Assembly: GCA_965228735.1 (NCBI GenBank)
Contig: OZ245838.1
Coordinates: forward strand, 6,912,001 to 6,976,000
Direction: 5' to 3'
From: Planctomycetota bacterium
GTDB lineage: Bacteria; Planctomycetota; UBA1135; UBA2386
Length of the DNA: 64,000 nt
The notes under the pieces were generated by a model. That model was not told the DNA's origin. It was given only the letters and a program-made list of their open reading frames with translations, and ran no database searches. The stretch's first letter is position 1, and every line of letters starts with the position of its first letter. Below, piece by piece: positions 36,175 to 55,560 of this stretch. Both the position numbers and the translations under genes were made by a program.

Positions 36175-36299
36175 TCGCGTTTGGCGGCGACCTCGAACCA
36201 GAAGGTCAAACCGGGCTTGCGAATTGCCCGCCGGCCGCTACGGTTCTCGTTCCGAAAACGCCGATATCGTCGGCGGACGCGGCTCCAGACGAGCTCCAC

Positions 36300-36373
36300 T
36301 GCCCCGTGGTGTAACGGTAGCACAACAGATTCTGGTTCTGTTTGTCAAGGTTCGAATCCTTGCGGGGTAACCA
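36300..36373 (+). tRNA. tRNA-Gln (CTG)
   Basis: Acceptor TGCCCCG/CGGGGTA, anticodon arm ACAGA-TTCTGGT-TCTGT, T arm CAAGG-TTCGAAT-CCTTG, CCA. Confidence 0.95.
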
Positions 36374-36374
36374 C

Positions 36375-38531: not shown

Positions 38532-38579
38532 ATGACCGATGATACCGCGCCTGGTCCGGCGCCGCGGGGAGCCGCGCGA

Positions 38580-39383
38580 CTAGGCGCCGTCGCCGAACAT
38601 CACGAGGATCGCTTCGGCCGGCTCGTCGTGCTCGTTCCACCATTCGTACGGTGTCATTGCGGGGATGAACACCATCTCGCCCTGCGCGACGGTCGTGGGT
38701 TGGCCGCCGACGGTGCCGCTGCACTCACCGCGGATCGCGATCACCATGACGGGGAAAGGCACGCGCATCGGCTGGCCGGGGCCGTTCTGCACGCGGTCGC
38801 CCTGCTCGAGCATCGACCACACCGTGCGCAGGCCCTTCTCGTAGTAGAAGATCGCGTTCTTCGCGCCGTGGGCCTCGCGCGTCAGCTTGGGGCCGAAGCG
38901 GACCTTCTCGGGAAACCCCCGGGTCCAGAAGTGGAACGACAGCGGGTTGACGTCGAACCGTTCGGCGTCGGGACTCCACTGCATGTCGAACGGCGCGGAA
39001 TCGCCGTAGAACTCCTTCGCGGCCGCGGTCAGGGCGCTGCACTCGCCGGCGTCGATCCTGGCCAGGGTCGCGGTGTCGGTGGTGTAGACGAACGCGGCGT
39101 CCGCCGGTTCTCGGCGATCGAGATCGACGCGCCAGCGGCCGTCGTCGTCCTGCCGACCATGCACGGTGACGAGCCAGGCGCCGCCGTTGTCGCCCGTGAC
39201 GCGCACGCCGAACGTGCGGGGCGTGCCGGCGGCAGGATCGGAACGGAAGTCCTCGACGTAGGTCCTCAGGATCCGCTCGGGATCGGTCGGCGGCGACGCA
39301 GCCGGGTCGGAGCGGCCCGGCAGGAGTGCGAAGGAGCCGGCGGTCAGGCCGGCGGACAGGAGGCAGAGGATCGGAGTACGCAC
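38580..39383 (-). CDS. Exported protein, SCP2-like plus cupin-like domains
   Basis: Signal-like start; TTDTATLARIDAG..SALTA is SCP2-like; IRGE...VGG....VAQGEMVFIPA..PYEWWN is cupin-like. Confidence 0.6.
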   Translation of the reverse strand: MRTPILCLLSAGLTAGSFALLPGRSDPAASPPTDPERILRTYVEDFRSDPAAGTPRTFGVRVTGDNGGAWLVTVHGRQDDDGRWRVDLDRREPADAAFVYTTDTATLARIDAGECSALTAAAKEFYGDSAPFDMQWSPDAERFDVNPLSFHFWTRGFPEKVRFGPKLTREAHGAKNAIFYYEKGLRTVWSMLEQGDRVQNGPGQPMRVPFPVMVIAIRGECSGTVGGQPTTVAQGEMVFIPAMTPYEWWNEHDEPAEAILVMFGDGA

Positions 39384-39567
39384 GGTTCGGTTCGGTTGGT
39401 CAGGGTCGGAGGAGGCGCGATGCGAGGTGCAGACGACGTTCGGCTGCAGCGGCATGCCAGCTAGTGCAAGATTGCTATAGCAGAAATGCTGTAGTTCGGC
39501 AACGGGCACGGGGCCGCGTGGACGGGGGGAGGCCGGCCGCGGGCGGCCGGGCGGCCGGGCCGCGGGG

Positions 39568-40221
39568 TCAGCGGATCGCGGAGTCTTCGGCCGCGAACGC
39601 CCGCAGCAGGGTCTCGCTCGGGTTGGTCGGCCGAACAGCGACGTAGCCCACGATTCCGGCCATGCCGGAGATCAGCACGGCGGCCTCGTCGAGTTGCAGC
39701 CGATACGCCCCGGCGGCCGCCGCGACCAGCGCGCCGGCCAACGCGAGGACCAGCGTGTTGCGGCGGCTCCACGGCGACACGGTGCGGCCCGGGCTGCCGC
39801 GGCGCCGGTCACGGACGACCCAGGTCAGGGCGCCGAGAAGGGTCGCGATCGTGACGACCGGTCCGAGCAACTCGATCGAGACGACGAGGTCGATCCCGGC
39901 GCACTCGGCGCGCCACGGTCCTTCCGCCACGGCCGCGGTCGTGGTCACCACGGCGAGCGTGGCGTGCCAGATCAGCAGCAGCCAGGAAAACGCGCGACCC
40001 GCTCCTCGCCAGCCGAGAGCCGCGATCGTCAGGCCGAGGCCGGTCGCGAGGAGCAGCACCCAGAGATCGCCGGTCGCGCCGACGCCGCCGAAGGGGCCGA
40101 TGCGCCACTCCGTCGCCGGCAGGCAGAGGCAGCGCAGGACCAGCGTGGCGCCGACCACCGGCAGCAGCCAGGTGATCGCGAGCACGACGCGCAGCAGCGG
40201 ATCCGGATACCACCTAAGCAC
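39568..40221 (-). CDS. Integral membrane protein
   Basis: About 6 hydrophobic helices; overlaps the PadR-family gene stop. Confidence 0.65.
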   Translation of the reverse strand: MLRWYPDPLLRVVLAITWLLPVVGATLVLRCLCLPATEWRIGPFGGVGATGDLWVLLLATGLGLTIAALGWRGAGRAFSWLLLIWHATLAVVTTTAAVAEGPWRAECAGIDLVVSIELLGPVVTIATLLGALTWVVRDRRRGSPGRTVSPWSRRNTLVLALAGALVAAAAGAYRLQLDEAAVLISGMAGIVGYVAVRPTNPSETLLRAFAAEDSAIR

Positions 40222-40765
40222 GGCGCGGCCTCCCGGCCCGCGTCAGCAGCCCGAGCTTCGCGATCGCCTCGTCGCACCACTCGACGCGCGCGCGCAGCGT
40301 CTTCAGGCCGAGGTCGAGGGCGAGGTTGCCGAGGAGATCGGCTTTCGGGTCGTCGTGCTCCACGGCCGAGCGGCGCGCTTCGTATTGCGCGAGTCGCGCG
40401 GCGAACCGTTCGCGCACCCGCTGCAGGAACGTGCGCGCCTCGGCGGGGTCGCGGGCGCGGCAGAGGAAGTGGATCTGGGCGAGTACCGACAGGCGTTCCT
40501 GGCCAACCTCCGGGTCGCTGTCCAGCCACTCGTCGAGCGTGCTCTGGCCCGCTCGGGTGCGCGAATAGACGCGGCGGTCCGGGCCCTTCTCCGACTTCTG
40601 AGGCTTGCTGCGCAGCAAGCCGTCCCGCTCGAGGCCGCGCAGGGTGCCGTAGATCTGGCTGCTCTCCGCGGCCCAGAGGTGACTCATCGAGTCGATCTTC
40701 TGCTTGAGGTCGTAGCCGCTCGCGGGGTTCTCCAGCAGACCGAGAAGCAGATAGCGCAGGCTCAT
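40214..40765 (-). CDS. PadR family transcriptional regulator
   Basis: MSLRYLLLGLL..PASGYDL, SQIYGTLRGLERDG, PDRRVYSRTRAG. Confidence 0.92.
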   Translation of the reverse strand: MSLRYLLLGLLENPASGYDLKQKIDSMSHLWAAESSQIYGTLRGLERDGLLRSKPQKSEKGPDRRVYSRTRAGQSTLDEWLDSDPEVGQERLSVLAQIHFLCRARDPAEARTFLQRVRERFAARLAQYEARRSAVEHDDPKADLLGNLALDLGLKTLRARVEWCDEAIAKLGLLTRAGRPRRA

Positions 40766-40835
40766 CCACAATCAGTATAGCGAATGTAGAATAGCTGGGC
40801 GAGCCCGGGGCCGGGGCAGGTCGTGCGATGCGCTC

Positions 40836-41945
40836 TCAGCTCGTCGCGCGGTGCAGGAACCGGTCGGTCATCCCGGCGATGTAGTCGCAGACCGTGCGCT
40901 CGACGCCGTCCGTCGAAAACCGCGCCCGGAAGCGTTCGGGCAGCGGTGACGGGTCCGCGCACCAGGCCGCGAACAGCCGCCGGATCCGGGCGGCGCCGTC
41001 GTTCATCACCGCGAGCACGCGGGCGCTGCGGTAGAAGCGGGTGCGCAAGAACTCGAGCACCTCCTGCGCGAGCACCGTGATCTCGTCGGAGTGGCGCAGG
41101 CGTGGCGTCGCGTCGCCCGGCTCGGCGGCGGCCGCCGCGAGGTCGCGGTCGGCGTGCTCCACGAGGTCGTGGATCAAGAGCGACGTGAACTCACTCACGA
41201 CGCGCAGTCGGTTGCTCGTCGCGGCGGCCTCGCGCGCGCGCGCCCAGAGCCGCAGTTCGCCGGCCTCGTCCTCGGTGAACAGGCCCGCACGCAGGCCGTC
41301 GTCGAGGTCGTGACTCAGGTAGGCGATCTTGTCGCAGAGGTCGACGAGCTGGGCCTCGATCGGCAGCGGCGGGCGCGGCGAGGTCGCGCGTTCGTGCCGC
41401 AGGTCGTCGCTCAGCGGAAAGCCGTCGGGCACGCGGCCCTTGAGCAGGCTCCGGCGCACGGCGTAGGTCAGGTTGAGGCCGTAGCCGTGGCCGTAGCGGC
41501 TGGCGAGCCGGTCGACGATACGCGCGCCCTGCGCGTTGTGGCGGAAGCCGCCGTGATCCTGCATCGCCTCGTCGAGCGCTTCCTCGCCGACGTGCCCGAA
41601 CGGCGGATGCCCGAGGTCGTGCGCCAGCGCGATCGCCTCGCTGAGGTCCTCGTTGAGGCGCAGCGCGCGCGCGACGCTGCGCGCCATCTGCGAGACCTCG
41701 AGCGAGTGCGTCATCCGGCTGCGGAAGTGGTCGCCCTCGAACGCGGCCATCACCTGCGTCTTGTGCTGCAGCCGGCGGAACGCGGAGCAGTGCAGGATCC
41801 GATCACGGTCGCGCTGGAAGACCGTGCGCAGCGGGTCCTCGCTCTCGTCGAGCCGCCGGCCGCCGGCGTTGCGGCTGGCCGTGGCGAACGGGCTCAGGCC
41901 GTGAAGCTCGCGGTCTTCCTGGTCCTCGCGGCGAAGCCAGACCAT
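40836..41945 (-). CDS. dgt: Deoxyguanosinetriphosphate triphosphohydrolase (dGTPase)
   Basis: RTVFQRDRDRILH..AFRRLQHKTQV, THSLEV, AHDLGHPPFGH, DYIAGMTD. Confidence 0.93.
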   Translation of the reverse strand: MVWLRREDQEDRELHGLSPFATASRNAGGRRLDESEDPLRTVFQRDRDRILHCSAFRRLQHKTQVMAAFEGDHFRSRMTHSLEVSQMARSVARALRLNEDLSEAIALAHDLGHPPFGHVGEEALDEAMQDHGGFRHNAQGARIVDRLASRYGHGYGLNLTYAVRRSLLKGRVPDGFPLSDDLRHERATSPRPPLPIEAQLVDLCDKIAYLSHDLDDGLRAGLFTEDEAGELRLWARAREAAATSNRLRVVSEFTSLLIHDLVEHADRDLAAAAAEPGDATPRLRHSDEITVLAQEVLEFLRTRFYRSARVLAVMNDGAARIRRLFAAWCADPSPLPERFRARFSTDGVERTVCDYIAGMTDRFLHRATS

Positions 41946-42055
41946 CTCAGTTCGCCTCCGGGCGCTCGCAAAGCGGGAGCCGCCGAGCGCAAGAGGCTCT
42001 ACCGTCGCTGCTTGGGTATGCCAGCAAAGCCGAATCCGGGCGTTCGACCCGGGCC

Positions 42056-42092
42056 AAAAGAAACGCCCGACAGGCCGTCGGCCTGCCGGGCG
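42056..42092 (-). terminator. Intrinsic terminator after tRNA-Glu
   Basis: Minus strand CGCCCGGCAGGCC-GAC-GGCCTGTCGGGCG followed by TTTCTTTT. Confidence 0.75.
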
Positions 42093-42094
42093 AG

Positions 42095-42170
42095 TGGTAC
42101 CCCCTAGGGGATTTGAACCCCTGTCGCATGGATGAGAACCATGAATCCTAGGCCACTAGACGAAGGGGGC
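42095..42170 (-). tRNA. tRNA-Glu (CTC)
   Basis: Reverse complement GCCCCCT...CATGG-TTCTCAT-CCATG...AGGGG-TTCAAAT-CCCCT-AGGGGGT-ACCA. Confidence 0.95.
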
Positions 42171-42365
42171 CTGTGCTGTCGGGTGAAGACAAGTACGGTG
42201 CGGGCTCGCTCGGGTCAAGTCGGCACCACCGGAATGGCGATCCCGGAATGTTCCCGAAGATCCCGCGTTGGACGGTGTCCGTGCGTATCGCCCGGATCCC
42301 GGATCTGATTCCTTCCTCTCTTCCCCCCGGGGCGCCGCGTGGCGCCCGCCAACCAGAGGACCTCT

Positions 42366-43412
42366 ATGCACTCCATTCTCGCGTCATTCCTCGGTCTCGC
42401 GCTGCTCGTCATGCCCGGCGGCGGCTGGCTCGGCGTCTACCTCGACGCCAGCGACGGCACGGCCAAGATCTCCGAAGTCGTACCCGATTCGCCGGCTCAG
42501 AAGGCCGGTCTGCGTTCCGGTGACGTCATCGTCGCCGTCGGCGACGAGAAGACGGCCACGACCGAAGACCTCATCAAGACGATCGGCGGCAAGGACCCCG
42601 GCGAACGGGTCAAGCTCAAGGTGAAGCGCGGGGACGGCCACACGATGGTCGTCGTCAAGCTCGGCAAGCGCCCGAGCGAGACCGCGGTTGCCGAGAGCGC
42701 GCCGCCGGTGGCGCGTCGCGGTGGTCGCCCGGGCGTCGCGGCCGTGGAGTCGCGCCCCAGCAAGGTGAGCAAGGCGAACAAGGCAAGCAAGGCGAGCAAG
42801 GCAAGCCAGCGGAGCAAGCCGCGCGGGCCGAGCACGATGCAAGAGCCGAGCAAGCCCGACGTGGCGAAGCCGACGGCCGCCCCGGAGCGCCCGAGCGTGT
42901 TCCTCGGCGTGCGCGTCGTCGAAGAGGACGGCCGTCTGCTGATCGACGGCGTGCTCGACGACAGCCCCGCCGCGAAGGCCGGGTTCCGCGAAGGAGACAC
43001 GTTCGCCGCGATCGGCCGTCGGCGCCTGCGCAGCCTGCGCGACCTCGATGCCGCGATCAAGACCCTGCGCGTCGGTCGGCCCGTGCCGGTCGCGCTCATG
43101 AATGGCGACGAACGTCGCAGCGTCGTTCTGAAGCCGGCTGCGGCGCGCGGCGCCGACGCGCCGGCGAAGGAGCACGAGCACGCCGAGGCCCACGACCACG
43201 GCGAAGGCCATGCCGCCCGCGAGCACGGGGAGCACGGCAAGGAGCACGGCGAGCGCGAAGGTCACGGGCGCAGCGAGAAGCACGAGCACGAGGCCGAACT
43301 CGAGCGCGAGATCGAGGCCATGCGGCAGGAGATCCGCAACGTGCGCAAGGAGCTCGAGCAGCTGCGCCGGCAGCTCCGGCGCGAGGGCGGCGGGCGCGGT
43401 CGCAAGGACTGA
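42366..43412 (+). CDS. Exported double-PDZ protein with His/Glu-rich tract and coiled coil
   Basis: GWLGV...VVPDSPAQKAGLRSGDVI and FLGV...DSPAAKAGFREGD. Confidence 0.85.
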   Translation: MHSILASFLGLALLVMPGGGWLGVYLDASDGTAKISEVVPDSPAQKAGLRSGDVIVAVGDEKTATTEDLIKTIGGKDPGERVKLKVKRGDGHTMVVVKLGKRPSETAVAESAPPVARRGGRPGVAAVESRPSKVSKANKASKASKASQRSKPRGPSTMQEPSKPDVAKPTAAPERPSVFLGVRVVEEDGRLLIDGVLDDSPAAKAGFREGDTFAAIGRRRLRSLRDLDAAIKTLRVGRPVPVALMNGDERRSVVLKPAAARGADAPAKEHEHAEAHDHGEGHAAREHGEHGKEHGEREGHGRSEKHEHEAELEREIEAMRQEIRNVRKELEQLRRQLRREGGGRGRKD

Positions 43413-43582
43413 ATCCAGCTCGCGACCGCAGGGCCCGGGCCGCGGTCACCCGACCGCGGCCCGGGTCCGGCACGTACGGCCACAAGTCCGGGAATAGACC
43501 GGCGCTTCGGTCGTCCGATCCGGCGCGATTGTGGCGGTCCGCAGTGGACGCGCGCCCGGTCGCGACCGAGGATTTCGTGCCG

Positions 43583-44614
43583 ATGACCCGCCCGCCGTTG
43601 CCCGATCGCCCCGCCGAGCCGCTGCTGCGGCCCGCGGACCGGGGCGGGCTCGTGGTCGTCACCGGGGGCGCGGGTTTCATCGGCTCTCATCTCGTCGACG
43701 AGTTGCTGGCGCGCGGCTTCCGGGTTCGGGTGGTCGACGACCTGTCGACGGGGCGGCGCGACAACCTCACGGCAGCGATCGCGGCCGGCTCCGAGCTCGT
43801 GGTCGGGTCGATCGCCGATCGCGCCACGGCCGAACGCGCGTTGGCCGACGCCGCGATGGTGTTCCATCTCGCCGGCGTCGTCGGAGTGCGGCTGCTCGCC
43901 GAGCAGCCGCTGGCCGTGATGGAGCGCAACCTCGACGGCACGCGGACGCTCCTCGCGGCCGCGGCGCGCGCGGGGGTCCCCGTCCTGTTCACGTCGAGCT
44001 CCGAGGTCTACGGCGACGGACCGGTGCCGTTCTGCGAACGCACCACCGTGCGACCCGGCGTCACCGAGGGCCGGCGCGGCGGCTACGCGTGCGCGAAGGC
44101 GATGAGCGAGTGGCTCGCGTTCGGCCACGGCGAGCAGGCGGATCTGCCCGTCGTCGTCGCACGGCTGTTCAACACCGTCGGGCCGCGGCAGACCGGCGAG
44201 CACGGCATGGTGCTGCCGCGATTCGTGCAGCAGGCGGTCGCGGGCGAGCCGATCACGGTCTACGGCTCGGGCGATCAGACGCGCTGCTTCGCGCATGTCG
44301 GTGAGGTCGCGCGCGCGCTCGCCGATCTCGCCGCGGCGCCGGGCTGTCGCGGGCGCGTGTTCAACGTCGGCGCCGCCGTCGAGACGACGGTGCTCGAACT
44401 CGCCGAACTCGTGCGTCGGGTGGCCGGCAGCAGTTCCGAGATCGCGCGCGTGCCGTTCCATCGCGTGTTCCCGCAGGGCTTCGTCGATCCGCCGCGCCGC
44501 GTGCCGAGTCTCGACCGGCTCGAACGCGCGATCGGCTGGGCGCCGGCGCGGGAACTCGAGTCGATCGTCGCCGAACTCGTCGAACTCGCGCGCCACGCGC
44601 CGTTGCTGGGCTGA
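43583..44614 (+). CDS. NAD-dependent nucleotide-sugar epimerase/dehydratase
   Basis: TGGAGFIGSHL, SSSEVYG, YACAK, RLFNTVGPRQ. Confidence 0.93.
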   Translation: MTRPPLPDRPAEPLLRPADRGGLVVVTGGAGFIGSHLVDELLARGFRVRVVDDLSTGRRDNLTAAIAAGSELVVGSIADRATAERALADAAMVFHLAGVVGVRLLAEQPLAVMERNLDGTRTLLAAAARAGVPVLFTSSSEVYGDGPVPFCERTTVRPGVTEGRRGGYACAKAMSEWLAFGHGEQADLPVVVARLFNTVGPRQTGEHGMVLPRFVQQAVAGEPITVYGSGDQTRCFAHVGEVARALADLAAAPGCRGRVFNVGAAVETTVLELAELVRRVAGSSSEIARVPFHRVFPQGFVDPPRRVPSLDRLERAIGWAPARELESIVAELVELARHAPLLG

Positions 44615-44654
44615 GGCCGGACGGCCGCCCGGGGCGGGCAGCGAGTCGGGGCCG

Positions 44655-46040
44655 TCAGACCCCGGCGGGATGCCGCTGCCGGAACGCGGCGAGGTTCTGC
44701 CGCGGGACCGGGTGTTCGGGCAGCAGCACGCAAGCGCGCTCGAACAGCTCGGCCGCGCGTTCGTAGTGGCCCGCCTGCATCTCGCAGATCGCGAGGTTGG
44801 TGTGGGCGAGCGCGTGGTCGTGCTCCATCGCGGTCCGGAACGACTCGGTCGCGGCCTCGAGCTTGCCGTCCGCGAGCAGACACGAACCGAGCCAGTTGTG
44901 CAGTTCGCCGCTTCCGGGATCGAGCGCCAGCGCGTCGCGGAAGCTCTCGGCCGCGGCCGCGGTGCGGCCCTTCCCGTAGAGGTGTTCGCCGATCCGGCAC
45001 AAGGTGTTCGCGAGCGCGTCGGGCGCGAGGGCGCAATGGGTGCTGGCCCATTGCAGCTGCGCGCCGGCGCCAGCCTCGTCACCGCCGGCAAGTCGCGCGA
45101 CGGCGAGTTCGAGCGCGGCGTCGCTGTGGCGCGGGCAGCGGTGCAGCAGGCGCTCCAGGTGTTCGATCGCGCGGACGTGGTCGCCGCACTCATTGTGGAA
45201 CCGACCGAGGTACCAATCGCCGTCCGGCCAGTGGGGCCAAACGCTGCGCGCGTTCGCGCTCGCCGCGGCCGCGCCGGCGTGGTCGCCGCGGATCTGTGCG
45301 AGGACCGCCTGGCCGGCGGGGTCGTGCTCCCACTTGCTCGCGAACTGCGCGAGCCGTTGTTGCAGCTCCGACGCGAGGTCGAGGCCGAGCGCCTTGAACG
45401 TAGCGTGCCCTTCGTGGTGCAGGAACGCGCGCCGCGCGATCACGAGCCGGTGACCGAGCAGTCGCAACCGCAGGCAGAAGTCGTCGTCCTCGAAGTTGCC
45501 GTTGCCGAACCGCTCGTCGAACTCGCCGACCTCGGCCAGCGTCTCGCGCCGCAGCATGAGGCACAACCCGGCGAGCGTGTCGACGTCCTGTACCTCGCAC
45601 GGCTCGTCCGCGAGTGCGTCGCGCACCTCGGCGCGCACGGAGGCTGCGTCCGTGCCGCTCACGGGCAACTGCGCCGGCCCCTTCACGAAGTTGCTCATGG
45701 GTGCGACGGCCCCGATCGCGGCATCGCTGGTCAGCACGCGATGCTGTTCCTGGAGCATGTTCTCGGCGGCCTGCGTGTCGTTGTTGAGCACGAGCACGAA
45801 CGGCAACCGCGCGGCTCGCAACCCGACGTTCACCCCGCCGGCGAACCCCAGGTTCTGCTCCTGGCGCAGCACCCGAATCACCGGCGACATCGCCGCGAGC
45901 TCCGCCGTCCCATCCGAACTCGCGTTGTCGACGAGCAACACCTCGAGCTCCTCGACCCCGCGCTGCTCCAACAGGCTCGCCAAACACGCCCGGGTCAACT
46001 CCACACCGCCATGGCAAGGAATGACCACCGAACAACGCAT
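44655..46040 (-). CDS. GT2 glycosyltransferase with C-terminal TPRs
   Basis: SVVIP, VDNASSDGT, NLGFAGGVN.G, LNND, FDERF..GNFEDDD. Confidence 0.92.
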   Translation of the reverse strand: MRCSVVIPCHGGVELTRACLASLLEQRGVEELEVLLVDNASSDGTAELAAMSPVIRVLRQEQNLGFAGGVNVGLRAARLPFVLVLNNDTQAAENMLQEQHRVLTSDAAIGAVAPMSNFVKGPAQLPVSGTDAASVRAEVRDALADEPCEVQDVDTLAGLCLMLRRETLAEVGEFDERFGNGNFEDDDFCLRLRLLGHRLVIARRAFLHHEGHATFKALGLDLASELQQRLAQFASKWEHDPAGQAVLAQIRGDHAGAAAASANARSVWPHWPDGDWYLGRFHNECGDHVRAIEHLERLLHRCPRHSDAALELAVARLAGGDEAGAGAQLQWASTHCALAPDALANTLCRIGEHLYGKGRTAAAAESFRDALALDPGSGELHNWLGSCLLADGKLEAATESFRTAMEHDHALAHTNLAICEMQAGHYERAAELFERACVLLPEHPVPRQNLAAFRQRHPAGV

Positions 46041-46116
46041 GTCAGAGGCATCGACACTTCCCGACCGCCAACCCGAAGAAAACCGCACCGGACCAGCCCA
46101 TCGAGCCCACCGGATA

Positions 46117-46271
46117 CTGATGTCCTGAGTGTGGATTCTCCGGATCGCGCCGCGCGCAAGAGCCGGTCGGTCGCGCTCTTGCAGTGGCGGGTCTCAGTCG
46201 GGACGGACAAGTCTCCGGGATTGCATTGCAGGCAACGAGTTACGGTTGTTCGACCACACGCAAGGCATCAG
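46117..46271. repeat. MITE-like element, copy B (CTGATG...CATCAG ends)
   Basis: CTGATGTCCTGAGTGTGG ... CCACACGCAAGGCATCAG; ends shared with 60548-60693. Confidence 0.55.
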
Positions 46272-46384
46272 CTCCGGGTGGGGTTGCGCTGCCGTTCCCC
46301 TGGCCCCCGCGTCCGGCCCCAAAGGCCTCCGAACCCCCTCGCGCGTTCCGCAGCCGGAGCCGTCAGGGAACCGGCCTACGCCGC

Positions 46385-46438
46385 CCTAGGCACCGACCAG
46401 CTGCGCGCAGCGCAAGAGAACCACTCGGTGCCTAGGCA
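46385..46438. repeat. REP-like inverted repeat
   Basis: CCTAGGCACCGA (46385-46396) / TCGGTGCCTAGG (46425-46436); 46419-46438 is a direct repeat of 46497-46516. Confidence 0.65.
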
Positions 46439-46490
46439 GTCCGCCGTAGCCGCGTGAATCATCGGCCCAGCCACCGACCCGAGGCCGCAT

Positions 46491-46526
46491 AAAAAAAACC
46501 ACTCGGTGCCTAGGCACCGAGTGGTT
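46491..46526 (-). terminator. Intrinsic terminator built on a perfect 30-bp palindrome
   Basis: AACCACTCGGTGCCT|AGGCACCGAGTGGTT (46497-46526) with a T8 run on the minus strand (46491-46498). Confidence 0.75.
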
Positions 46527-46761
46527 GGGGAAAGGGGTTGGAACCCCCCGTGATCCACGGCGACGGTGAGCGCTCTCGCCTGAAACTCATGCACACTTCG
46601 CTCCGAGAACGCGCGGGCTCGCCTCCCACACGCTCTCTCCGCCACGCGGACCGAGCTGAACCGGATCTCGCCTTCCCAGTTCAGCCCTTCATTGTTTTCA
46701 AACAGCTCTCGTTCTCTGTACTCGTTCGGGCGGCCTCTGACCGAGGCACTCCCGAAGGACG
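46491..46761 (-). ncRNA. Candidate sigma54-dependent sRNA with three AGGCGAG hairpin loops
   Basis: Promoter, C(UUCG)G hairpin, three stems with the same loop motif and minus-strand G-U pairs, terminator; no credible ORF. Confidence 0.65.
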
Positions 46762-46772
46762 ACGGCCTGGTC

Positions 46773-46788
46773 GCGAAAGGCGTGCCAA
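46773..46788 (-). promoter_or_regulatory. Sigma54 (-24/-12) promoter
   Basis: Minus strand TTGGCACG-CCTT-TCGC with exact GG-N10-GC spacing; one mismatch to TGGCACG-N4-TTGC. Confidence 0.65.
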
Positions 46789-46969
46789 ACGTCCGCGTTT
46801 GTAGCCGGGGTGCCGTAAGTGGGCCGCTGTGCGCATCGTGTGGTGTTGTTCACGCCCCTGACTTACAGCGGGATCCCATTCCAGAGATCGAGATGGGACG
46901 ATAGCGGGAATTGAGACGAGACGGGAAGCTCGCCGTGGACGCGCGTTTCCTCCGAAACCAGGGGACCTT

Positions 46970-48016
46970 GTGCGTGATCCCGCGCGCCGTATCGTCCTCG
47001 CGGTGTCCCGGCGTGCAGACCCCAGCGATCACGTATTCGTCGTCGAGCCCGATGCGCGCGGGTTGCGGCTGCTGGCGCTCCTGGAGCAGCAATTGCCGCA
47101 GATCCACCGCGCTGAGCTCCGGGCCCATCTCGCCGACGGGAACGTCTCGCTCAACGGTGAAACAGTAGTCAGTGATCGGCGGCTCCGGTCCGGTGATGTC
47201 GTGCTCGCGAGTCCGCTGCCACCCGGGGTTCGGGCGGCGCCCGGGGTCACGGGGGCCGCGTCGCCAGGGGGCCTGACGGCAGCGTCGCTGGCGATCTTGT
47301 TCGAGTCAGAGACCGCGCTGGTCGTCGCCAAGCCCGCCGGGATCCCGACAGTGCCCGATCGCAGTGGTCGCGAACGGGGCGTGCACGGACTGCTGACCGA
47401 CCTGCGCCCGGACGGCGATCTGCGCGTGGCCCACCGGCTCGACCGTCAGACCTCGGGTTGCCTGCTGCTCGCGAAGGGGCTGGACGCCGCGCGCCACTTC
47501 GACGCCGCGTTCCGGGCGGGCACGGTGCAGAAGCACTACCAGGCCCTCGTGCAAGGCGTCGTGCGGGACGGCGAGTTCATGATCGATCGCTGGCTCGGCC
47601 CGGATCCGCGGCGGCCCGGCAAGGTGATCCAGGGGCCGGCCGGGAAGAAGGGCTTTCGCGAGGCCGTGACCGTGGTGCGGCGGGCCCGGATCTTCGCGGC
47701 CCATTCGGTCGTGGATCTCTTTCCGCGGACCGGACGGGGGCACCAGCTGCGGGTCCACCTGAGCTCGCGCGGGCACCCGATCGTCGGCGATCGTGACTAC
47801 GGCGGCCAACCGCTGCTGTTGTCGCAGATCAAACGCGGATACAAACCTCGGCTCGGATTCGACGAGAAGCCGGTGCTCGCGCGCACCTTCCTGCACGCGC
47901 TCGGCCTGTCGTTCCGAGACGTCGACGGCCGCGAGGTGGCCGTCGAGACCCCGCTCCCCGAGGATCTGGCGCAGGCCCTCGGCAAGCTCGAACGCTTCAG
48001 TCCGCCGCGGCCCTGA
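46970..48016 (+). CDS. RluA/RluD family pseudouridine synthase with S4-like domain
   Basis: VAKPAG, HRLDRQTSG, TGRGHQLRVHL...GHPIVGD..YG, FLHA. Confidence 0.92.
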   Translation: MRDPARRIVLAVSRRADPSDHVFVVEPDARGLRLLALLEQQLPQIHRAELRAHLADGNVSLNGETVVSDRRLRSGDVVLASPLPPGVRAAPGVTGAASPGGLTAASLAILFESETALVVAKPAGIPTVPDRSGRERGVHGLLTDLRPDGDLRVAHRLDRQTSGCLLLAKGLDAARHFDAAFRAGTVQKHYQALVQGVVRDGEFMIDRWLGPDPRRPGKVIQGPAGKKGFREAVTVVRRARIFAAHSVVDLFPRTGRGHQLRVHLSSRGHPIVGDRDYGGQPLLLSQIKRGYKPRLGFDEKPVLARTFLHALGLSFRDVDGREVAVETPLPEDLAQALGKLERFSPPRP

Positions 48017-48069
48017 GTCCGCGTCGCCTCTCTCAGCGCCACTAGCCCAGGGCAGTCGCCCGCGTCAGC

Positions 48070-49791
48070 ATGCGTCTCAAGACCACTCCCCAAGACTTCC
48101 GCGTCCGCGAACTGCTCGAGTGGCCCGAGGTCAAGGACGGCGACTACGTCGTGCACTCGCTCCACAAGGAGAAGCTGTCGACGGCGGAGGCGCTGTCGAT
48201 GCTCGCGACCCAGTGCAAGGTCGACCGCTCCACGATCGCCTACGCCGGTCTCAAGGATCGGCAGGCCGTGACCGACCAGTTTCTCACGATCGAGCGGCGT
48301 GCCGTCAACCTGTCGCTGCCCAACCTCAAGGTGCAGCCCGTCGGCACGACGGACCGGCCGATCACGAGCAAGATGAGCGCGGGGAACGCCTTCACGATCG
48401 TCGTCCGCGATCTGCGGCCGACGCAGGCGACGCAGGTGCGCCGGTCGCTGCCGAGCCTCGTGAAGGCGGGGTTTCCGAACTACTTCGACGACCAACGCTT
48501 CGGCTGCCTGCGCCACGGCCAGGGATTCGCGATGGAGAGCGTGCTGCACGGCGACTACGAACGCGCGTTGCAGCAGCTGATCGGCGAGCCGTCGCCCGTC
48601 GCGATCACCGGTGACGTCAAGCTCAAGCAGACGATCCGGGCGCGCTGGGGTGACTGGGAGATGCTGTCCAAGGTCGCGCGCGGCCCGGTGTACGAACCCA
48701 TGTTCCTGCACCTCGTGAGCCGCCCCGACGACTTCCGTGGGGCGCTCGAGTTCGTGCCGTTGCGCCAGCGGGTGATCCAGGCGTTCGCGTATCAATCCTT
48801 CCTTTGGAACCGCGCGGTGAGTCAGCTGCTGCACCGCGGCATCGCGTCGGCGCAGCGCCTGCGGATCCATACGCTGGCCGGCGACATCATGGCCTGGAAG
48901 TACCTCGCGCCCGAACGCGAGGAGAAGCTCGTCGCGATGCGCACGCCGCTCTACGGTCCGGACGGGGACGGCGGCAGCACGCCGTTCCGGCGGTCGATGG
49001 AGCGACAGCTCGAGCGGGCGGGGCTGAGGCGCGACAGCTTCTTGCAGAACGAAGTGCCCGGGATGATCTGGCGGGAAGAACAGCGCGACGTGTTCATCAA
49101 GCCGCGCGACGTCAAGGACGTGCGCATCGAGCCCGACGACGAGAACCCGGGCAAGGTGTGCGCGCATCTGGCGTTCGCGTTGCCGCGTGGCGCCTACGCG
49201 ACGATGCTGATCAAGCGGTTGTTCGCGCACAGCTGGTACGACAAGTTCGACGAACGTGGCGGGGGGCGTGGTCCGGGCGGGCCGCGCGGTGGCTACCGCG
49301 ATCGCGACGACCGGCCCCGTGACGATCGGCCGCGTGATGACCGGCGCCGCGATGACCGGCCCCGCGATGACTTCCGTGGCGATCGGCCGCGCTTTGATCG
49401 CCCGCGTGACGACCGTCCGCGACAGGATCGGCCGCGACGCGACCGCTCACGCGACGATCGGCCGCGCCGCGACCGCCCGCGCGACGACCGTCCGCATCGC
49501 GACCGCCACGATGACGCTACGGCGATCGATGGTCCGCCGGCGATCTTCGACGCCCGCGCGGCCAACAACCCCGAGCCGCCGGTCGACGGGCGGGCGCGCG
49601 GAACTGTGGGTGACGGACCGGTGGGTGACGCGGCCCCGACCGAGCGCGACGACGCACCGCCGCCGGCCAGGCCACCGCGCTCGCGGCAGCGGCTCGACGC
49701 TGGCTTCGAAGGCCTCGACGAGTTCGTGCAACGGTCCGACGAGAGCGGCGGTACGACCGACGACTCCGCGCCCGAATCCGACGAATCATGA
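48070..49791 (+). CDS. truD: tRNA pseudouridine(13) synthase TruD with an RD-rich disordered tail
   Basis: PQDFRVRE, YAGLKDRQAVT.Q, GNAF.I, PNYFDDQRFG, AYQS.LWN, F.LPRGAYAT. Confidence 0.92.
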   Translation: MRLKTTPQDFRVRELLEWPEVKDGDYVVHSLHKEKLSTAEALSMLATQCKVDRSTIAYAGLKDRQAVTDQFLTIERRAVNLSLPNLKVQPVGTTDRPITSKMSAGNAFTIVVRDLRPTQATQVRRSLPSLVKAGFPNYFDDQRFGCLRHGQGFAMESVLHGDYERALQQLIGEPSPVAITGDVKLKQTIRARWGDWEMLSKVARGPVYEPMFLHLVSRPDDFRGALEFVPLRQRVIQAFAYQSFLWNRAVSQLLHRGIASAQRLRIHTLAGDIMAWKYLAPEREEKLVAMRTPLYGPDGDGGSTPFRRSMERQLERAGLRRDSFLQNEVPGMIWREEQRDVFIKPRDVKDVRIEPDDENPGKVCAHLAFALPRGAYATMLIKRLFAHSWYDKFDERGGGRGPGGPRGGYRDRDDRPRDDRPRDDRRRDDRPRDDFRGDRPRFDRPRDDRPRQDRPRRDRSRDDRPRRDRPRDDRPHRDRHDDATAIDGPPAIFDARAANNPEPPVDGRARGTVGDGPVGDAAPTERDDAPPPARPPRSRQRLDAGFEGLDEFVQRSDESGGTTDDSAPESDES

Positions 49792-50657
49792 GCGAGAAGA
49801 CCCTGGGAATCATCGGCGGCTCCGGCCTCTACGATCTGCCCGAGCTGGAAGAACGCGAGGAGGTCGTGCTCGACACGCCCTACGGCAGCCCGAGCGATGC
49901 GTTCATCACCGGCCGTTTGTTCGGCGTGAAGATGGCATTCCTGCCGCGGCACGGTCGTGGCCATCGGCTGTCGCCGAGCGAGTTGCCGTTCCGCGCCAAC
50001 CTCTACGGCATGAAGCAGCTCGGCATGGACTGCGTCGTCGGCGTGTCGGCCGTCGGGTCGATGAAGGAGAACATCAAGCCGGGTGAGCTCGTGCTCGTCG
50101 ACCAGTTCATCGATCGCACGCGCGGTCGGACCGAGGAGTCGACGTTCTTCGGCAACGGCTGCGTCGCGCACGCGCACTTCGCCGATCCGATCTGGGAACC
50201 GCTGCGCAAGCGCGCGCTCGGCGCTGCCAAGGCGGCGGGCGCGGTCGCGCACGATGGCGGGACCTACGTCTGCATGGAGGGGCCGCTGTTCAGCACGCGC
50301 GCCGAGAGCAAACTGTATCGCAGCTGGGGCGTCGACGTGATCGGCATGACCAACCTGCAGGAGGCCAAGCTCGCGCGCGAGGCGGAGATCGCCTACTCCA
50401 CGGTCGCGCTCGTCACCGACTACGACTGCTGGCACGAGGGCGAGGCCGACGTCGACGTCGCCGCGGTCATCGCCGTCCTCAAGGCCAACGTCGACATGGC
50501 GCGCCGCGTCGTCGTCGAACTCGCGAAGGCCACCGCCGAGGGCGAGCCGATCTCGGCCGCCGGTGCGATGGAGCACGCGATCATGACCGACAAGAAGCTC
50601 GTCGGCGCCGACGCGCGGCGGCGGCTCGAGATCCTCGCGAGCAAGTATCTCGGCTAG
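49788..50657 (+). CDS. mtnP: S-methyl-5'-thioadenosine phosphorylase
   Basis: GIIGGSG, TPYG.PS, FLPRHGRGH, EGPLFSTRAES, IGMT, VTDYDCW. Confidence 0.93.
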   Translation: MSEKTLGIIGGSGLYDLPELEEREEVVLDTPYGSPSDAFITGRLFGVKMAFLPRHGRGHRLSPSELPFRANLYGMKQLGMDCVVGVSAVGSMKENIKPGELVLVDQFIDRTRGRTEESTFFGNGCVAHAHFADPIWEPLRKRALGAAKAAGAVAHDGGTYVCMEGPLFSTRAESKLYRSWGVDVIGMTNLQEAKLAREAEIAYSTVALVTDYDCWHEGEADVDVAAVIAVLKANVDMARRVVVELAKATAEGEPISAAGAMEHAIMTDKKLVGADARRRLEILASKYLG

Positions 50658-50658
50658 A

Positions 50659-50781
50659 CCCGCGGCGGTACCGAACCCGTTTCAAATCCGCCACCGAGCC
50701 ACCGGCGCAACTGGCGTTACACTGCGGCGTTTGCGCGGAACTGCCGTGGCGGATTCGAAACGGGTTCGGTACCGCCGCGGG
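50659..50781. repeat. 123-bp MITE-like hairpin with 36-bp inverted repeats
   Basis: 50659-50694 and 50746-50781 are complementary at 35 of 36 positions; between convergent genes. Confidence 0.75.
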
Positions 50782-50796
50782 CGGTGGGTCATGGCG

Positions 50797-52560
50797 TCAG
50801 CGCTTCTTCGGGCGCGACGAGATGTCGTCGGCGGTCCCGAACTTGCCGTCCGGGCCAGCGCTCACAACAGTGAACTTCGAAACTGTCTTGCCCGTGAGGC
50901 GGAACGGGTTGCCCCACGCGTCGGTCGGCAGCTTGGTGAGGAAGCGCTCGGCACCGGTCGTCAGTTCGGTGAGCGACTTCGGCAAACGTCCGTGGCGGGT
51001 CGCGTGGGCGGCGACGCCCTTGGCGAGGATCGCCGCCGTATTCTGCGCCGCGATTCGACGGGTGCTGGCGGCCATGCGCCGGAACGCCGCGGCCTGCTCC
51101 TTCAGCTCCGCGTTGTCATATTCGGCCGCGATGCGCGCCTGCTCCGTGGCCGTGCGTTCGAAGTCACGCGCGCTCTCGTGAGCGAGGGCGACCCGTTCGA
51201 GTTCGAGATCAGCACCCGTCGGCGTTCGCTTGATCGTCGGCTCCTTGGGCTCGGCTGCGCTCTGCTCCGCGGCGCGTACGAGGTCAGCGATCAGCTGGTT
51301 CGTCTCGCCTGATTCGTCTGGGTTCGACGGCTCGTCCATTGCCGCGATCCGGCGTTCGAACTCGCTTTCTTTCTCTTGCCACTCCTGCATGGCCCGTTCG
51401 AAGTCCCGATCGAACTGCGCTCGCCGCCCAAGTGCCGCCGCCGCCCCCGCCGTGACATCATCCCGCGTGTCGATCTCCCCGTCGCTGCCGAGCGACCGCA
51501 CGTCCGGCTCACCGTCGATCAACCGCAGCGCGTAGGGGCGACCCCACGGATCGACGCCGTCCTTGCGGCCGGGCAGCTTGCCGTTCTCCTGGGCCTGCCG
51601 CACGGCTGCCCAGGTCGGCGTCGTGCCCGGGTTCTGCGCGCAGAACTTCACGACCGCGGCCCGCAGCTTCTGCACGTCGCGCCGTGCGCGCCAGCGCTTC
51701 TGCTTGAGCCCCTTCTCGACGGTCGGGAAGCGCTTGCGGTCGCAGTCCCACGCCGTGATCCACTCCTCGCGCACGAACTCGAACCCGAAGTCGGTGAGCA
51801 AGCGCCGCTCCATGTGCTCCATGTGGGCAGCGCCGTAGTAGATGCCGATGTTCTGCACGCCCGCGTCGAGCTGTTCCTGCAGCACCGCGAGGCACTTGTC
51901 GTTGCGGCCCTCGATGATGACGGTCGGCTTGCGGGTTGGCGGCTCAGGCGTAGCCATCAAGCGCGCGCCCATCACCCGCATCCCGTGGGCGCCGCGGCCG
52001 CTGCGGAACGCCTCGACGAGGTCGACCCTGCCGCGACGCTTCTCGGCCTCGCGGTCGACCTCGGCGGTCGGATTACTCATGACCTCGCCGATGATGCTGC
52101 TGTTGTGCCGTGTCATTGCCGCGTCGAACTCTTCGATCGTCATGTCGGCGTGAACGAAGTTGGCCTGTCGGTAATCGAGCACGTCCGCTTGTTGATGCAG
52201 CGAGAACCCGCGGCCCATGCTGGACATCAGGATCGACAGCCAGTCGTCCTCGAACTCCATGCCCGGGTGGGGGCGCAGGCCGGGATCCGTGACGAACTCG
52301 TAGAGCAGCTTGTCGTAAGTCGCGAACCGGCGCTGTAGCTCTTCGTAATGCTCGCGGTCGGCGATGTGCAGCGACGCGAGCAGCGTGACGGTCACGTCAC
52401 CGCGGCGGTAGGTCGCGATCGCCGTCTCGAGCTGGCCACCGTCCGGCTCGTCGACGAAGCGGGTGAACGGCCGGCGCTCGGGCTCGCCCGTCGCGTCCTG
52501 CGCGGACGTCGCCGTGGCCAGGGCGGCGAGGAGACAGCTCGTGATCGCGAGGAGTCGCAC
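50797..52560 (-). CDS. Secreted TraB/GumN-like protein fused to two GspG (T2SS pseudopilin)-like domains
   Basis: Signal ending TSAQ; SLHIAD..HY, IEGRN, YYGAAHM; DPWGRPY...SLGSDG...DD and DAWGNPF...SAGPDG.FGTADDI. Confidence 0.65.
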   Translation of the reverse strand: MRLLAITSCLLAALATATSAQDATGEPERRPFTRFVDEPDGGQLETAIATYRRGDVTVTLLASLHIADREHYEELQRRFATYDKLLYEFVTDPGLRPHPGMEFEDDWLSILMSSMGRGFSLHQQADVLDYRQANFVHADMTIEEFDAAMTRHNSSIIGEVMSNPTAEVDREAEKRRGRVDLVEAFRSGRGAHGMRVMGARLMATPEPPTRKPTVIIEGRNDKCLAVLQEQLDAGVQNIGIYYGAAHMEHMERRLLTDFGFEFVREEWITAWDCDRKRFPTVEKGLKQKRWRARRDVQKLRAAVVKFCAQNPGTTPTWAAVRQAQENGKLPGRKDGVDPWGRPYALRLIDGEPDVRSLGSDGEIDTRDDVTAGAAAALGRRAQFDRDFERAMQEWQEKESEFERRIAAMDEPSNPDESGETNQLIADLVRAAEQSAAEPKEPTIKRTPTGADLELERVALAHESARDFERTATEQARIAAEYDNAELKEQAAAFRRMAASTRRIAAQNTAAILAKGVAAHATRHGRLPKSLTELTTGAERFLTKLPTDAWGNPFRLTGKTVSKFTVVSAGPDGKFGTADDISSRPKKR

Positions 52561-52586
52561 CCCCGGATGATAGCCGTTCGGCCCGG

Positions 52587-53414
52587 TCAGGCGCGCTTCC
52601 GCGCGATCACCTCGTACACCGGCGGGCAGTGCACGATGACGTTCGGGTCGCCGCGGCCGTCCGCGAACTCGCGGAGCAGCGTGTCGCACGTGCTCTGCTC
52701 CAGCCGCTGCATCGCGACGAGCTTGGGGCCGAACGTGTGCCACCAGGTGTCGACCCACCCGTACATGCTGTCGGTGCCGCGCGCGACGCGCAGCTGGCAC
52801 TCGATGTGCTCGAGCTCGAAGCCGTGGCGTTGGAGCATGGCCGGCAGGCGGCCGACGACGTCGGGGTCACCGCCGCGTTCGTGCCACGAGTCGACGGTCG
52901 CCGCGATCGCCTGGCTCTGCGCGTCCGAGTGCGGGCTCATCGCGAGCGTCGCGTAGTTGAAGTAGTCGTGCACGACGAAGCGGCCACCCGGCGCGAGCGC
53001 CGCCGCGACGCCGGCGACGACGGCCTCCGGGTCGCGCACGAAGCACAGGACCCAGCGCGCATAGGCGAGGTCGAACGGCGGCTCGTCGCCGAGCAACGGG
53101 CCGAGCTGCTGCACGTCGCCGAGCCGGGCCGTGATCCAGGGCAGGTCCTGCGTCTGGCGCTGCTCGCGCAGGTGCGCGAGGAACGGCTCCGACTCGTCGA
53201 TCGCGACGACGGCGCCGCGGCTCGTGACGAGGCGCGCGAGGTCGAACGCGGCGTAGCCCGGACCGCAGCCGACGTCAAGCACACGGTGTCCGATGCGGAT
53301 GCCGGCGCGACGGCAGGCCGCGAGCATCGCGTCACCCCAGAGCCGCGACTGCAGGCCGAGGCGCTCGAGCTCGTCGTCGCCGGTTCCGAGGACGTAAGGC
53401 CGGGCGTCGGTCAT
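52587..53414 (-). CDS. Class I SAM-dependent methyltransferase
   Basis: YVLG...ELERL..Q, VLDVGCGPG, FDLAYARWVL, LAPGG. Confidence 0.9.
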   Translation of the reverse strand: MTDARPYVLGTGDDELERLGLQSRLWGDAMLAACRRAGIRIGHRVLDVGCGPGYAAFDLARLVTSRGAVVAIDESEPFLAHLREQRQTQDLPWITARLGDVQQLGPLLGDEPPFDLAYARWVLCFVRDPEAVVAGVAAALAPGGRFVVHDYFNYATLAMSPHSDAQSQAIAATVDSWHERGGDPDVVGRLPAMLQRHGFELEHIECQLRVARGTDSMYGWVDTWWHTFGPKLVAMQRLEQSTCDTLLREFADGRGDPNVIVHCPPVYEVIARKRA

Positions 53415-53439
53415 GCCCTTTCGTATACATTCCGGCCCC

Positions 53440-54492
53440 ATGAGCGACCTCTCTCGACGCAAGTTTCTCGGGGCCTCCGCGGCGGCCGCGAGCCTGCCCG
53501 CCTGTGCTGACATGACGGCGCGGCTCTCGATCCATCGCCGGCAGTCGCCGGTCGCGGTCGCGAGCGCCAACGGCCTCGAGGCGGTGCGGATCGCCGTCGA
53601 ACGCATGCAGGCCGGCATGCGGCCGGTCGATGCCGCAGTGGCCGGGGTCGAGGTCGTCGAGAACGACCCGAAGGACGACAGCGTCGGGCTCGGCGGCCTG
53701 CCGAACGAGGACGGCGTCGTCACGCTCGACGCGTGCGTCATGGACGGGCCGTCGGGGCTCGGCGGCGCCGTCGCGCACCTGCGCAACATCAAGAACCCGG
53801 CGCAGGTCGCGCTCAAGGTCATGCGACGCACGGATCACGTGTTGCTCGTCGACGAGGGCGCGCTCGAGTTCGCGCGGGCGCACGGCTTCGTCGAGGAGAA
53901 CCTGCTGACCGAGGAGTCGCGCAAGAAGTGGTTGCGCTGGAAGGAGCGGCGGTCGTCGATCGACGACTGGATCTCGCCCGAGGAGAACGGCGAGCACGGC
54001 ACCGAGTGGTTCGACGAGTTCAAGGACAAGACCGGCACGATCCACCTCGGCGCGGTGAACGGCAGCGGCGACGTCGGCAGCGTGACGACGACGTCGGGGC
54101 TCGCGTTCAAGCTGCGGGGCCGGGTCGGCGACTCGCCGCTGCTCGGGTGCGGCAACTACTGCGACAACGACGTCGGCACGGGCGGTTCGACGGGGCGCGG
54201 CGAGGCCTGCATCCTGAGCAACGGCGGCTCGTTCATCGTGCACCAGATGGCGCTCGGCAAGTCGCCGACCGACGCGTGCCTCGAGACCGTGAAGCGCGTC
54301 GCGCGCATGACCAAGGTCAAGCGGCTGCTCGACGACCGCGGGCGCCCGAACTTCCAGGTCAAGTTCTACGCGACCGACAAGCAGGGGCGGTACGGCGGCG
54401 CGGCGATGTATCCCGGCAAGTTCGCGGTGTGCGACGACAACGGGCCGCGGCACGAGGATCTCGCGCCGTTGTTCGAATCGCGGCGGCGCTGA
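53440..54492 (+). CDS. Tat-exported N(4)-(beta-N-acetylglucosaminyl)-L-asparaginase (Ntn hydrolase)
   Basis: SRRKFL Tat motif; SVGLGGLPN, LDACVMDG, GTI nucleophile region, TTSG..FK.RGRVGDSP, TGRGE. Confidence 0.9.
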   Translation: MSDLSRRKFLGASAAAASLPACADMTARLSIHRRQSPVAVASANGLEAVRIAVERMQAGMRPVDAAVAGVEVVENDPKDDSVGLGGLPNEDGVVTLDACVMDGPSGLGGAVAHLRNIKNPAQVALKVMRRTDHVLLVDEGALEFARAHGFVEENLLTEESRKKWLRWKERRSSIDDWISPEENGEHGTEWFDEFKDKTGTIHLGAVNGSGDVGSVTTTSGLAFKLRGRVGDSPLLGCGNYCDNDVGTGGSTGRGEACILSNGGSFIVHQMALGKSPTDACLETVKRVARMTKVKRLLDDRGRPNFQVKFYATDKQGRYGGAAMYPGKFAVCDDNGPRHEDLAPLFESRRR

Positions 54493-54514
54493 TTGCCCGA
54501 TTCCGGAGCCGGCG

Positions 54515-55435: not shown

Positions 55436-55560
55436 TCTGCAAAGTTGGAGCGGTCGGCTTCGGGTCCATCGGTCGCCCGGGCCCCGGACTATAGCACCCG
55501 ATCGCGGCGGCTGCCGGAATCGGCCCGGCGGCGTCAAGGGGTTGGCCGGTGCCGCCGGCA

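Follow-up and report, generated by a model that had tools for sequence, protein, structure and literature searches.

A putative sigma-54-type RNA gene with near-invariant GGCGAG hairpin loops in one family of Planctomycetota

Among the described RNAs that are closest to the element treated here, the Qrr RNAs are Hfq-dependent RNAs of about 100 nucleotides (nt) that act by base pairing, and ANTAR sites carry hexaloops, with the second hairpin overlapping the terminator. CsrB, RsmY, and RsmZ are non-coding RNAs in which one short motif is repeated in hairpin loops and which have an intrinsic terminator (PMC6546359). Sigma-54 and enhancer-binding proteins drive CrcZ and CrcY of Pseudomonas, which carry repeated motifs and antagonize an RNA-binding regulator (PMC5113210, PMC4063720), as well as the Qrr RNAs of Vibrio (PMC10162802). 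GlmY and GlmZ, sigma-54-dependent small RNAs (sRNAs) of Enterobacteriaceae, are tied to envelope sugar metabolism, and GlmY acts as a decoy for the protein RapZ (PMC3045617, PMC7073468). In Planctomycetota, regulatory RNAs are almost unknown. For the Planctomycetes-Verrucomicrobia-Chlamydiae (PVC) group, Table 1 of a 2022 review lists 8 annotated sRNA families, compared with 345 for Proteobacteria (PMC9029176), and the terms sRNA and non-coding are not present in a 2025 study that compares sigma-54 regulons and includes Planctomycetia (PMC12316311). The literature covered, with most subscription journals outside it, did not describe any sRNA under sigma-54 control, or any RNA with GGCGAG loops, in this phylum. 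The subject of this work is a predicted RNA gene on the minus strand of a 64,000-nt stretch of a Planctomycetota bacterium genome (contig OZ245838.1, positions 6,912,001 to 6,976,000; hereafter the window). The genome consists of a single contig of 7.19 Mb with a GC content of 69%, and the RNA gene lies between divergent genes for an RluA-type pseudouridine synthase (rluA) and a GT2-TPR glycosyltransferase.

The locus is best described as a single-copy RNA gene with a sigma-54-type promoter box, in which the near-invariant WGGCGAG loops are likely docking sites, present in repeated form, for a partner that we infer to be a protein; the probability of this reading is put at roughly 0.5. The elements of the locus in the window are as follows.

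46874-46898: inverted repeat TCCCAT-N13-ATGGGA, candidate enhancer (upstream activating sequence, UAS) for a sigma-54 activator
46773-46788, minus strand: sigma-54-type -24/-12 box TTGGCACGCCTTTCGC, with GG at 46786-85 and GC at 46774-73
46491-46762, minus strand: predicted transcript of ~270 nt, with the inferred +1 about 12 nt past the GC of the box
46733-46759, minus strand: two short 5' hairpins, UCC-UUCG-GGA (46759-46750) and GCCUC/GAGGC (46747-46733), specific to the genus of the window
46702-46710, minus strand: conserved box GAGAGCUGU, invariant or nearly so in 21 sequences
46655-46685, minus strand: hairpin 1, 10 bp, loop AAGGCGAGA, with AGGCGAG at 46673-46667
46605-46637, minus strand: hairpin 2, 13 bp, with the heptaloop AGGCGAG at 46624-46618
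46563-46600, minus strand: conserved block GAGYGARGUGUGCAWGAG..CAGGYGAGA with the third AGGCGAG (46581-46575), subclade-specific and with a weak stem
46530-46560, minus strand: two short hairpins, CCGUG-GAU-CACGG and GGGG..CCCC, of which the GGGG/CCCC one is kept family-wide
46491-46526, minus strand: intrinsic terminator, a palindrome of 13-15 bp (46526-46497) followed by U8, which ends at 46491

All of the elements that a first-pass annotation, made from the sequence of the window, had listed for this locus were found on the minus strand at the positions it gave. The box reads TTGGCACG-CCTT-TCGC in the window (full form TGGCACgccttTCGC), with exactly N10 between GG and GC, and this spacing, which the annotation had singled out, is conserved in all members of a curated set of 38 loci, on which the family counts below are based. 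In an alignment of 22 sequences, none departs from the GG or the GC. The box agrees with the consensus at 8 or more of 11 positions in 38/38 members, and at 9 or more in 37/38. Because the GG-N10-GC box is conserved, transcription that depends on sigma-54 and an enhancer-binding protein is predicted. The genome of the window has two rpoN copies (2 matches to Sigma54_DBD) and 31 matches to Sigma54_activat (23 above 149 bits, and none within the window). The sigma factor and the type of activator that the annotation had called for are thus present, the latter as about 23 enhancer-binding proteins. Across the family, rpoN was found in 87 of 91 genomes, including 31/31 high-quality ones. Most family genomes have two rpoN paralogs, which score approximately 210 and 180 bits against Sigma54_DBD. 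At the other end of the unit, an intrinsic terminator was detected in 37/38 members, giving an estimated RNA length of 266-379 nt (median 306; 37 loci).

The region upstream of the box is also conserved in type. Upstream of the box, half-sites of the form [GA]TCCC[AG] average 2.43 in 210 nt (37 loci), compared with 0.29 in 355 control windows, an 8-fold difference. They form inverted pairs or are repeated directly at a distance of one helical turn, with a peak at -140 to -80 from the box, in a region that is shared with the rluA promoter. The inverted repeat noted by the first-pass annotation in the window is one instance of this conserved cluster. Among the 175 sigma-54-like boxes in the genome, three half-sites were found at the box of this RNA only, and a regulon shared with the other boxes was rejected on this basis.

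The predicted structure is strand-specific. On the minus strand, a 275-nt stretch folds at -135.5 kcal/mol (z = -5.1), and the same stretch folds at -111.8 kcal/mol (z = -3.75) on the plus strand. When hairpins 1 and 2 are each folded alone, they contain four G-U pairs (one and three, respectively) that are A-C mismatches on the other strand, as the first-pass annotation had pointed out. Among the members of the family, the order of elements is the promoter box, a variable 5' part, the invariant GAGAGCUGU box with a mini-hairpin, hairpins 1 and 2, another variable region, the GGGG/CCCC hairpin, and the terminator. In most clades, the place of the two 5' hairpins of the window is taken by AUGCAGAUGAGAG at the predicted 5' end and a hairpin with a AGCCCAAGG loop. 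Hairpin 1 is family-wide a long three-part helix capped by GGU-UGGCGAG-ACC, and hairpin 2 is a second hairpin with a WGGCGAG cap. The closing pairs of hairpin 2 vary freely, whereas the GGU/ACC of hairpin 1 is conserved in sequence.

Covariation was assessed with a manual structure and model-fitted alignments in place of a plain RNAalifold run, which missed hairpins 1 and 2 on a plain 22-sequence MAFFT alignment because of register shifts. An early alignment of four sequences had already given 59 predicted pairs, 19 of them with a compensatory change. For alignment A (MAFFT, 21 sequences, manual structure of 25 pairs), 82.4% of cells are paired compared with 69.7% after shuffling (0/500 shuffles as high), the covariation score is 0.346 compared with 0.175 for shuffled and at most 0.173 for slid controls, and double changes are present in 14/25 pairs. 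Alignment B is model-fitted and therefore biased toward the structure it was fitted to; its 43 rows include 5 false positives, which can only depress its figures. Here, 85.3% of cells are paired (64.6% shuffled), the covariation score is 0.513 (0.190 shuffled; slid controls at most 0.129), and 21/25 pairs have double changes, including 10/10 pairs in the long helix of hairpin 1 and 8/8 pairs in hairpin 2. The pairs of the terminator covary as well. GGCGAG is found within loop 1 in 36/38 members and within loop 2 in 34/38. The first-pass annotation had looked to homologs for invariant loops on covarying stems, and this is the pattern found: the loops are near-invariant while the stems covary, and the locus is a conserved structured RNA.

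These results bear on the explanation that no functional RNA is involved, in which the conserved features would be regulatory sites in the DNA that serve rluA or GT2-TPR, or else the remains of an insertion in decay. The position between divergent genes and the absence of the element from part of the family are consistent with such an explanation. However, the helices are maintained by compensatory changes, the wobble pairs make the structure strand-specific, the promoter box and the terminator are present in 38/38 and 37/38 loci, respectively, and an RNA-seq contig lies on the locus. This explanation is very improbable. A hidden small protein was likewise rejected. The loop-to-loop distance takes every one of the three phases (in 12, 2, and 7 of the 21 sequences), and therefore no reading frame is conserved. 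The periodicity of GC at third codon positions (GC3) that is seen in the flanking genes is not shown by the locus.

The number of motif-bearing hairpins requires a correction. The first-pass annotation described three AGGCGAG hairpins, of which two, with the core GGCGAG, are conserved family-wide. The third motif (CAGGYGAGA) is limited to the genus of the window and a few other genera, and its stem in the window is a weak UGAG/CUCA helix of 4 bp, with a minimum free energy fold that pairs part of the motif and leaves no clean apical loop. Per transcript, exact GGCGAG is present in two copies in 27/38 members, in three or more in 8/38, and in one in 3/38. In the genome of the window, AGGCGAG occurs 1171 times on both strands, and the triple at this locus exceeds chance expectation because only 2 places have three copies inside 120 nt. 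Hairpin 2 has the longest stem among all of the WGGCGAG-loop hairpins of this genome.

Searches against Rfam 15 support the claim that no known RNA family is present. Within the window, three tRNAs alone reach the gathering score, and the RNA itself matches no family; at E <= 10 over 46200-47100, the matches are not meaningful, with the best ones far below threshold. The RNA is single-copy and unique in its own genome, so the concern that it might be a dispersed repeat does not apply. Homologs were detected by blastn in 3 of 40 relatives, and all four genomes have the GG-N10-GC box upstream and the GT2 gene downstream. A model built from these four sequences (R1) had matches in 15/91 family genomes. 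When named genome records were scanned with a pattern, 27 loci resulted, 17 of them real and nearly all labelled as Planctomycetota metagenome-assembled genomes; L048 was set aside as false. A second model from 21 sequences (R2) matched 41/91 family genomes, with one match each. Four of these matches lie in coding DNA and are false, leaving 37/91 true members. Three divergent copies (in G074, G011, and G014) were found genome-wide by R1 only, and the G074 locus (L015) also matched R2 when loci were searched directly. In all, the RNA is present in 40 of the 91 searched genomes of one Planctomycetota family. Outside the family, 1/108 genomes of nine sister families in the same order matched, marginally, and this match was judged false. 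Within the set of genomes searched, only part of one family carries the RNA.

Five R2 matches of at most 28 bits (L091-L095) were rejected, as they are without box, terminator, and synteny. Two of them (L092, 1505-1626, and L094, 1567-1688) are inside genes for enhancer-binding proteins, in the AAA+ domain, where the codons for the conserved peptides LDEVGE and QEGEFE contain GGCGAG. A pattern scan of metagenomes gave seven loci; five are real and have the same neighbours, and two are chance matches in coding DNA.

The neighbouring genes in the window were placed by Pfam, which leaves an intergenic region of ~880 nt around the RNA.

44655-46040, minus strand: GT2-TPR glycosyltransferase gene, likely start ATG 46040, downstream of the RNA
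46970-48016, plus strand: RluA-type pseudouridine synthase gene, likely start GTG 47003, divergent from the RNA

Beyond GT2-TPR lies a convergent epimerase gene, and rluA is followed by truD and then by an MTAP-like gene. Among the 38 loci, rluA is upstream of the RNA in 36. Three genomes that lack the RNA (G009, G044, and G020; loci L101, L103, and L104) have rluA and GT2-TPR as divergent neighbours approximately 80-190 nt apart, with neither a sigma-54 box nor a GGCGAG hairpin between them. Since members without the RNA keep the two genes as close divergent neighbours, the RNA module is a gain/loss polymorphism in the family.

Several observations weigh against a trans-acting RNA with docking loops. 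GT2-TPR is on the same strand and downstream in 32/38 loci (one contig is too short to tell), and in 30 loci its start codon comes 11-108 nt after the U-tract (median 52 over all 31 measured). The short gap leaves little room for a promoter of GT2-TPR itself, and therefore fits a leader. The RNA-binding regulators CsrA, Hfq, and ProQ were not found. Moreover, across the whole genome, hairpins with a WGGCGAG heptaloop show no enrichment (57 of 3008 motif sites, 26th among 30 permutations), and therefore nothing points to a regulon of mRNAs with similar sites. The next-best long-stem WGGCGAG hairpins sit in DNA with coding GC3 periodicity. Finally, the transcript evidence in run X17, described below, is a single contig of low depth (2.8) from one run, and it carries neither strand nor ends.

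On the alternative that fits the gene order most directly, the RNA would be a cis-only leader (attenuator) of GT2-TPR: transcription would start at the upstream sigma-54 promoter, the leader would set read-through into the gene, and the short RNA would be a by-product. The GGCGAG loops would then be the binding site of an antitermination factor or help to form a pocket for a ligand. Besides the shared strand and the short gaps, the genera without the RNA speak for this alternative, as their closely spaced rluA and GT2-TPR mean that the module separates the gene, exactly, from the sequence that was formerly upstream of it. However, an intact RNA with box and terminator is kept without GT2-TPR in 5/38 genomes of two genera. 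In these loci, a convergent epimerase gene replaces GT2-TPR, and a short remnant of the latter is still visible in two of the five genomes. In the window, 450 nt (46041-46490) separate the terminator from the gene. In addition, the conserved loops are more than 100 nt away from the terminator, and inspection of the alignments by eye revealed no conserved pairing that competes with the terminator. A leader acting only in cis is a serious alternative, if a rather unlikely one, and trans action is favoured because five of the 38 genomes keep the RNA without GT2-TPR and because the spacer in the window is 450 nt long. The description of the element as an "orphan" sRNA in the first-pass annotation is doubtful, given that GT2-TPR follows closely on the same strand in most loci.

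The long spacer of the window has features of its own. It holds partial copies of the terminator arm, with 46414-46438 being a 92% copy of 46492-46516, and CCTAGGCACCGA is repeated at 46385-46396. Compared with the 11-108 nt in 30 other loci, this spacer looks like a local insertion with duplication, judging from these repeats. For the GT2-TPR gene behind it, ATG 46040 (MRCSVVI, as in relatives) is a likelier start than GTG 46088, which opens the longest open reading frame (44655-46088). A short motif, GCCGAUGA(C), is found 8-12 nt 5' of the GT2-TPR start codon in L058, L054, and other loci, and it is kept with or without the RNA (as in the RNA-less L101, L103, and L104). Its complement is found in the GUCAUC (Val-Ile) codons shortly after the start of GT2-TPR, and therefore a hairpin in the start region is possible.

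Known RNA-binding regulators were looked for in the genome. For CsrA, no match to PF02599 was obtained in the single-contig genome, in which positive controls matched, and Hfq and ProQ were not found in this genome either. A search for ANTAR proteins gave no match, but its control was silent, such that this result is uninformative. That CsrA, Hfq, and ProQ were not found also suits an explanation in which no protein is titrated. Here, the RNA would be a trans-acting base-pairing sRNA, with the GGCGAG loops as redundant seeds that kiss CUCGCC in mRNAs. Identical single-stranded loops repeated on covarying stems suit this explanation, as does the presence of CUCGCC or UUCGCC just 5' of the divergent rluA start in 19/36 loci. 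However, a seed of only six nucleotides is short, given that GGCGAG occurs 17815 times on both strands of a genome with 69% GC. The sequence conservation of the closing GGU/ACC of hairpin 1 is a better fit to recognition of a folded hairpin. As for rluA, the site is not conserved in the other 17 loci, UUCGCC is present there in one of four RNA-less relatives examined, and a sigma-70-like rluA promoter that includes the site is the better explanation. Because a TTGAG-N16/17-TATCCT promoter fits better, rluA was dropped as a base-pairing target. Taken together, base pairing in trans is an unlikely account of the loops.

The sigma-70-like motif TTGAG-N16/17-TATCCT is kept 8-10 nt 5' of the likely rluA start in most loci, and the form in the window (plus strand, 46968-47005) consists of TTGTGC at 46968-73, TATCGT at 46990-95, and GTG at 47003. 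The motif is read in differing frames between genomes and therefore does not reflect protein conservation. The rluA mRNA may be nearly leaderless.

A first sign of expression comes from public sequencing data, in which the DNA of the locus was found in many runs. In one RNA-seq run, an assembled contig falls entirely within the RNA.

46527-46685, strand not given by the contig: RNA-seq contig from run X17, 161 nt, 100% identical

No other contig of X17 was found over 45500-47800, and over 20 kb (36001-56000), all other pieces listed are 20-42-nt parts of foreign contigs. This pattern is a hint that, within these 20 kb, no transcript of the organism is more abundant than the RNA. Runs X22-X24 had nothing matching 45500-47800, which is no proof of absence.

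Under the favoured reading of a trans-acting RNA with docking loops, the locus may work as follows. An activator bound to TCCCA-type sites approximately 80-140 bp upstream would switch the promoter on, and termination at the intrinsic terminator would release an RNA of ~270-330 nt. The two loops, or three in the genus of the window, would bind the partner in trans, and the partner would be a protein that the RNA titrates, i.e., the RNA would act as a sponge. Read-through of the terminator probably also feeds GT2-TPR in most genomes, in which it lies 11-108 nt downstream. A more specific version, in which the sigma-54- and enhancer-controlled RNA titrates a new protein that reads WGGCGAG heptaloops and thereby places the synthesis of envelope polysaccharide (GT2-TPR), together with targets elsewhere, under the influence of a signal from the environment, is tentative and on the doubtful side.

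The possible outcomes differ in what they would add to the biology of the phylum. If the loops bind a protein, it would be a new RNA-binding regulator for the phylum, in which the familiar regulators of this kind were not found. If the trans-acting sponge holds true, the RNA would represent the first post-transcriptional hub for Planctomycetota, and if the leader explanation is correct, it would represent a new system by which an envelope glycosyltransferase is attenuated. The RNA is ready for experiment, as its promoter box is clear, its loops are fixed, and a putative enhancer region and a terminator accompany it.

Comparison with known systems indicates several partial likenesses. With CsrB, RsmY, and RsmZ, the RNA shares its non-coding nature, the repetition of one short motif in hairpin loops, and the intrinsic terminator. 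Unlike in CsrB, the motif is WGGCGAG rather than GGA and is present in two to three copies instead of many, the predicted promoter is of the sigma-54 type, the CsrA gene was not found in this genome, and there is no relation in sequence or in Rfam. The resemblance to CrcZ and CrcY lies in the predicted dependence on sigma-54 and an enhancer-binding protein and in the repeated motifs; antagonism of an RNA-binding regulator is a likeness by inference. CrcZ differs in its A-rich motifs bound by Hfq/Crc, with Hfq not found here, and belongs to a different phylum, with no homology. GlmY and GlmZ are similar as sRNAs with a dependence on sigma-54, which is predicted here, and with a link to envelope sugars, but GlmY is without a repeated loop motif, and no Rfam match was obtained for the RNA described here. 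The Qrr RNAs would share a promoter of this type, in which enhancer-binding proteins and sigma-54 drive a small regulatory RNA, whereas the present RNA is ~300 nt long with repeated loops, and Hfq was not found. ANTAR-type dual-hairpin leaders are similar in that a terminator and a gene are preceded by two hairpins whose loops have the same conserved residues. Here, however, the loops have seven nucleotides and are over 100 nt away from the terminator, and the RNA is kept without the gene in 5/38 loci. By analogy, the RNA appears to work most like the sigma-54-dependent decoy and sponge RNAs (CrcZ, GlmY, and CsrB/RsmZ), while being a member of none of them. With a motif, a partner, and a phylum that differ from those of known sponges, and with no matching Rfam model, it is considered a new RNA family.

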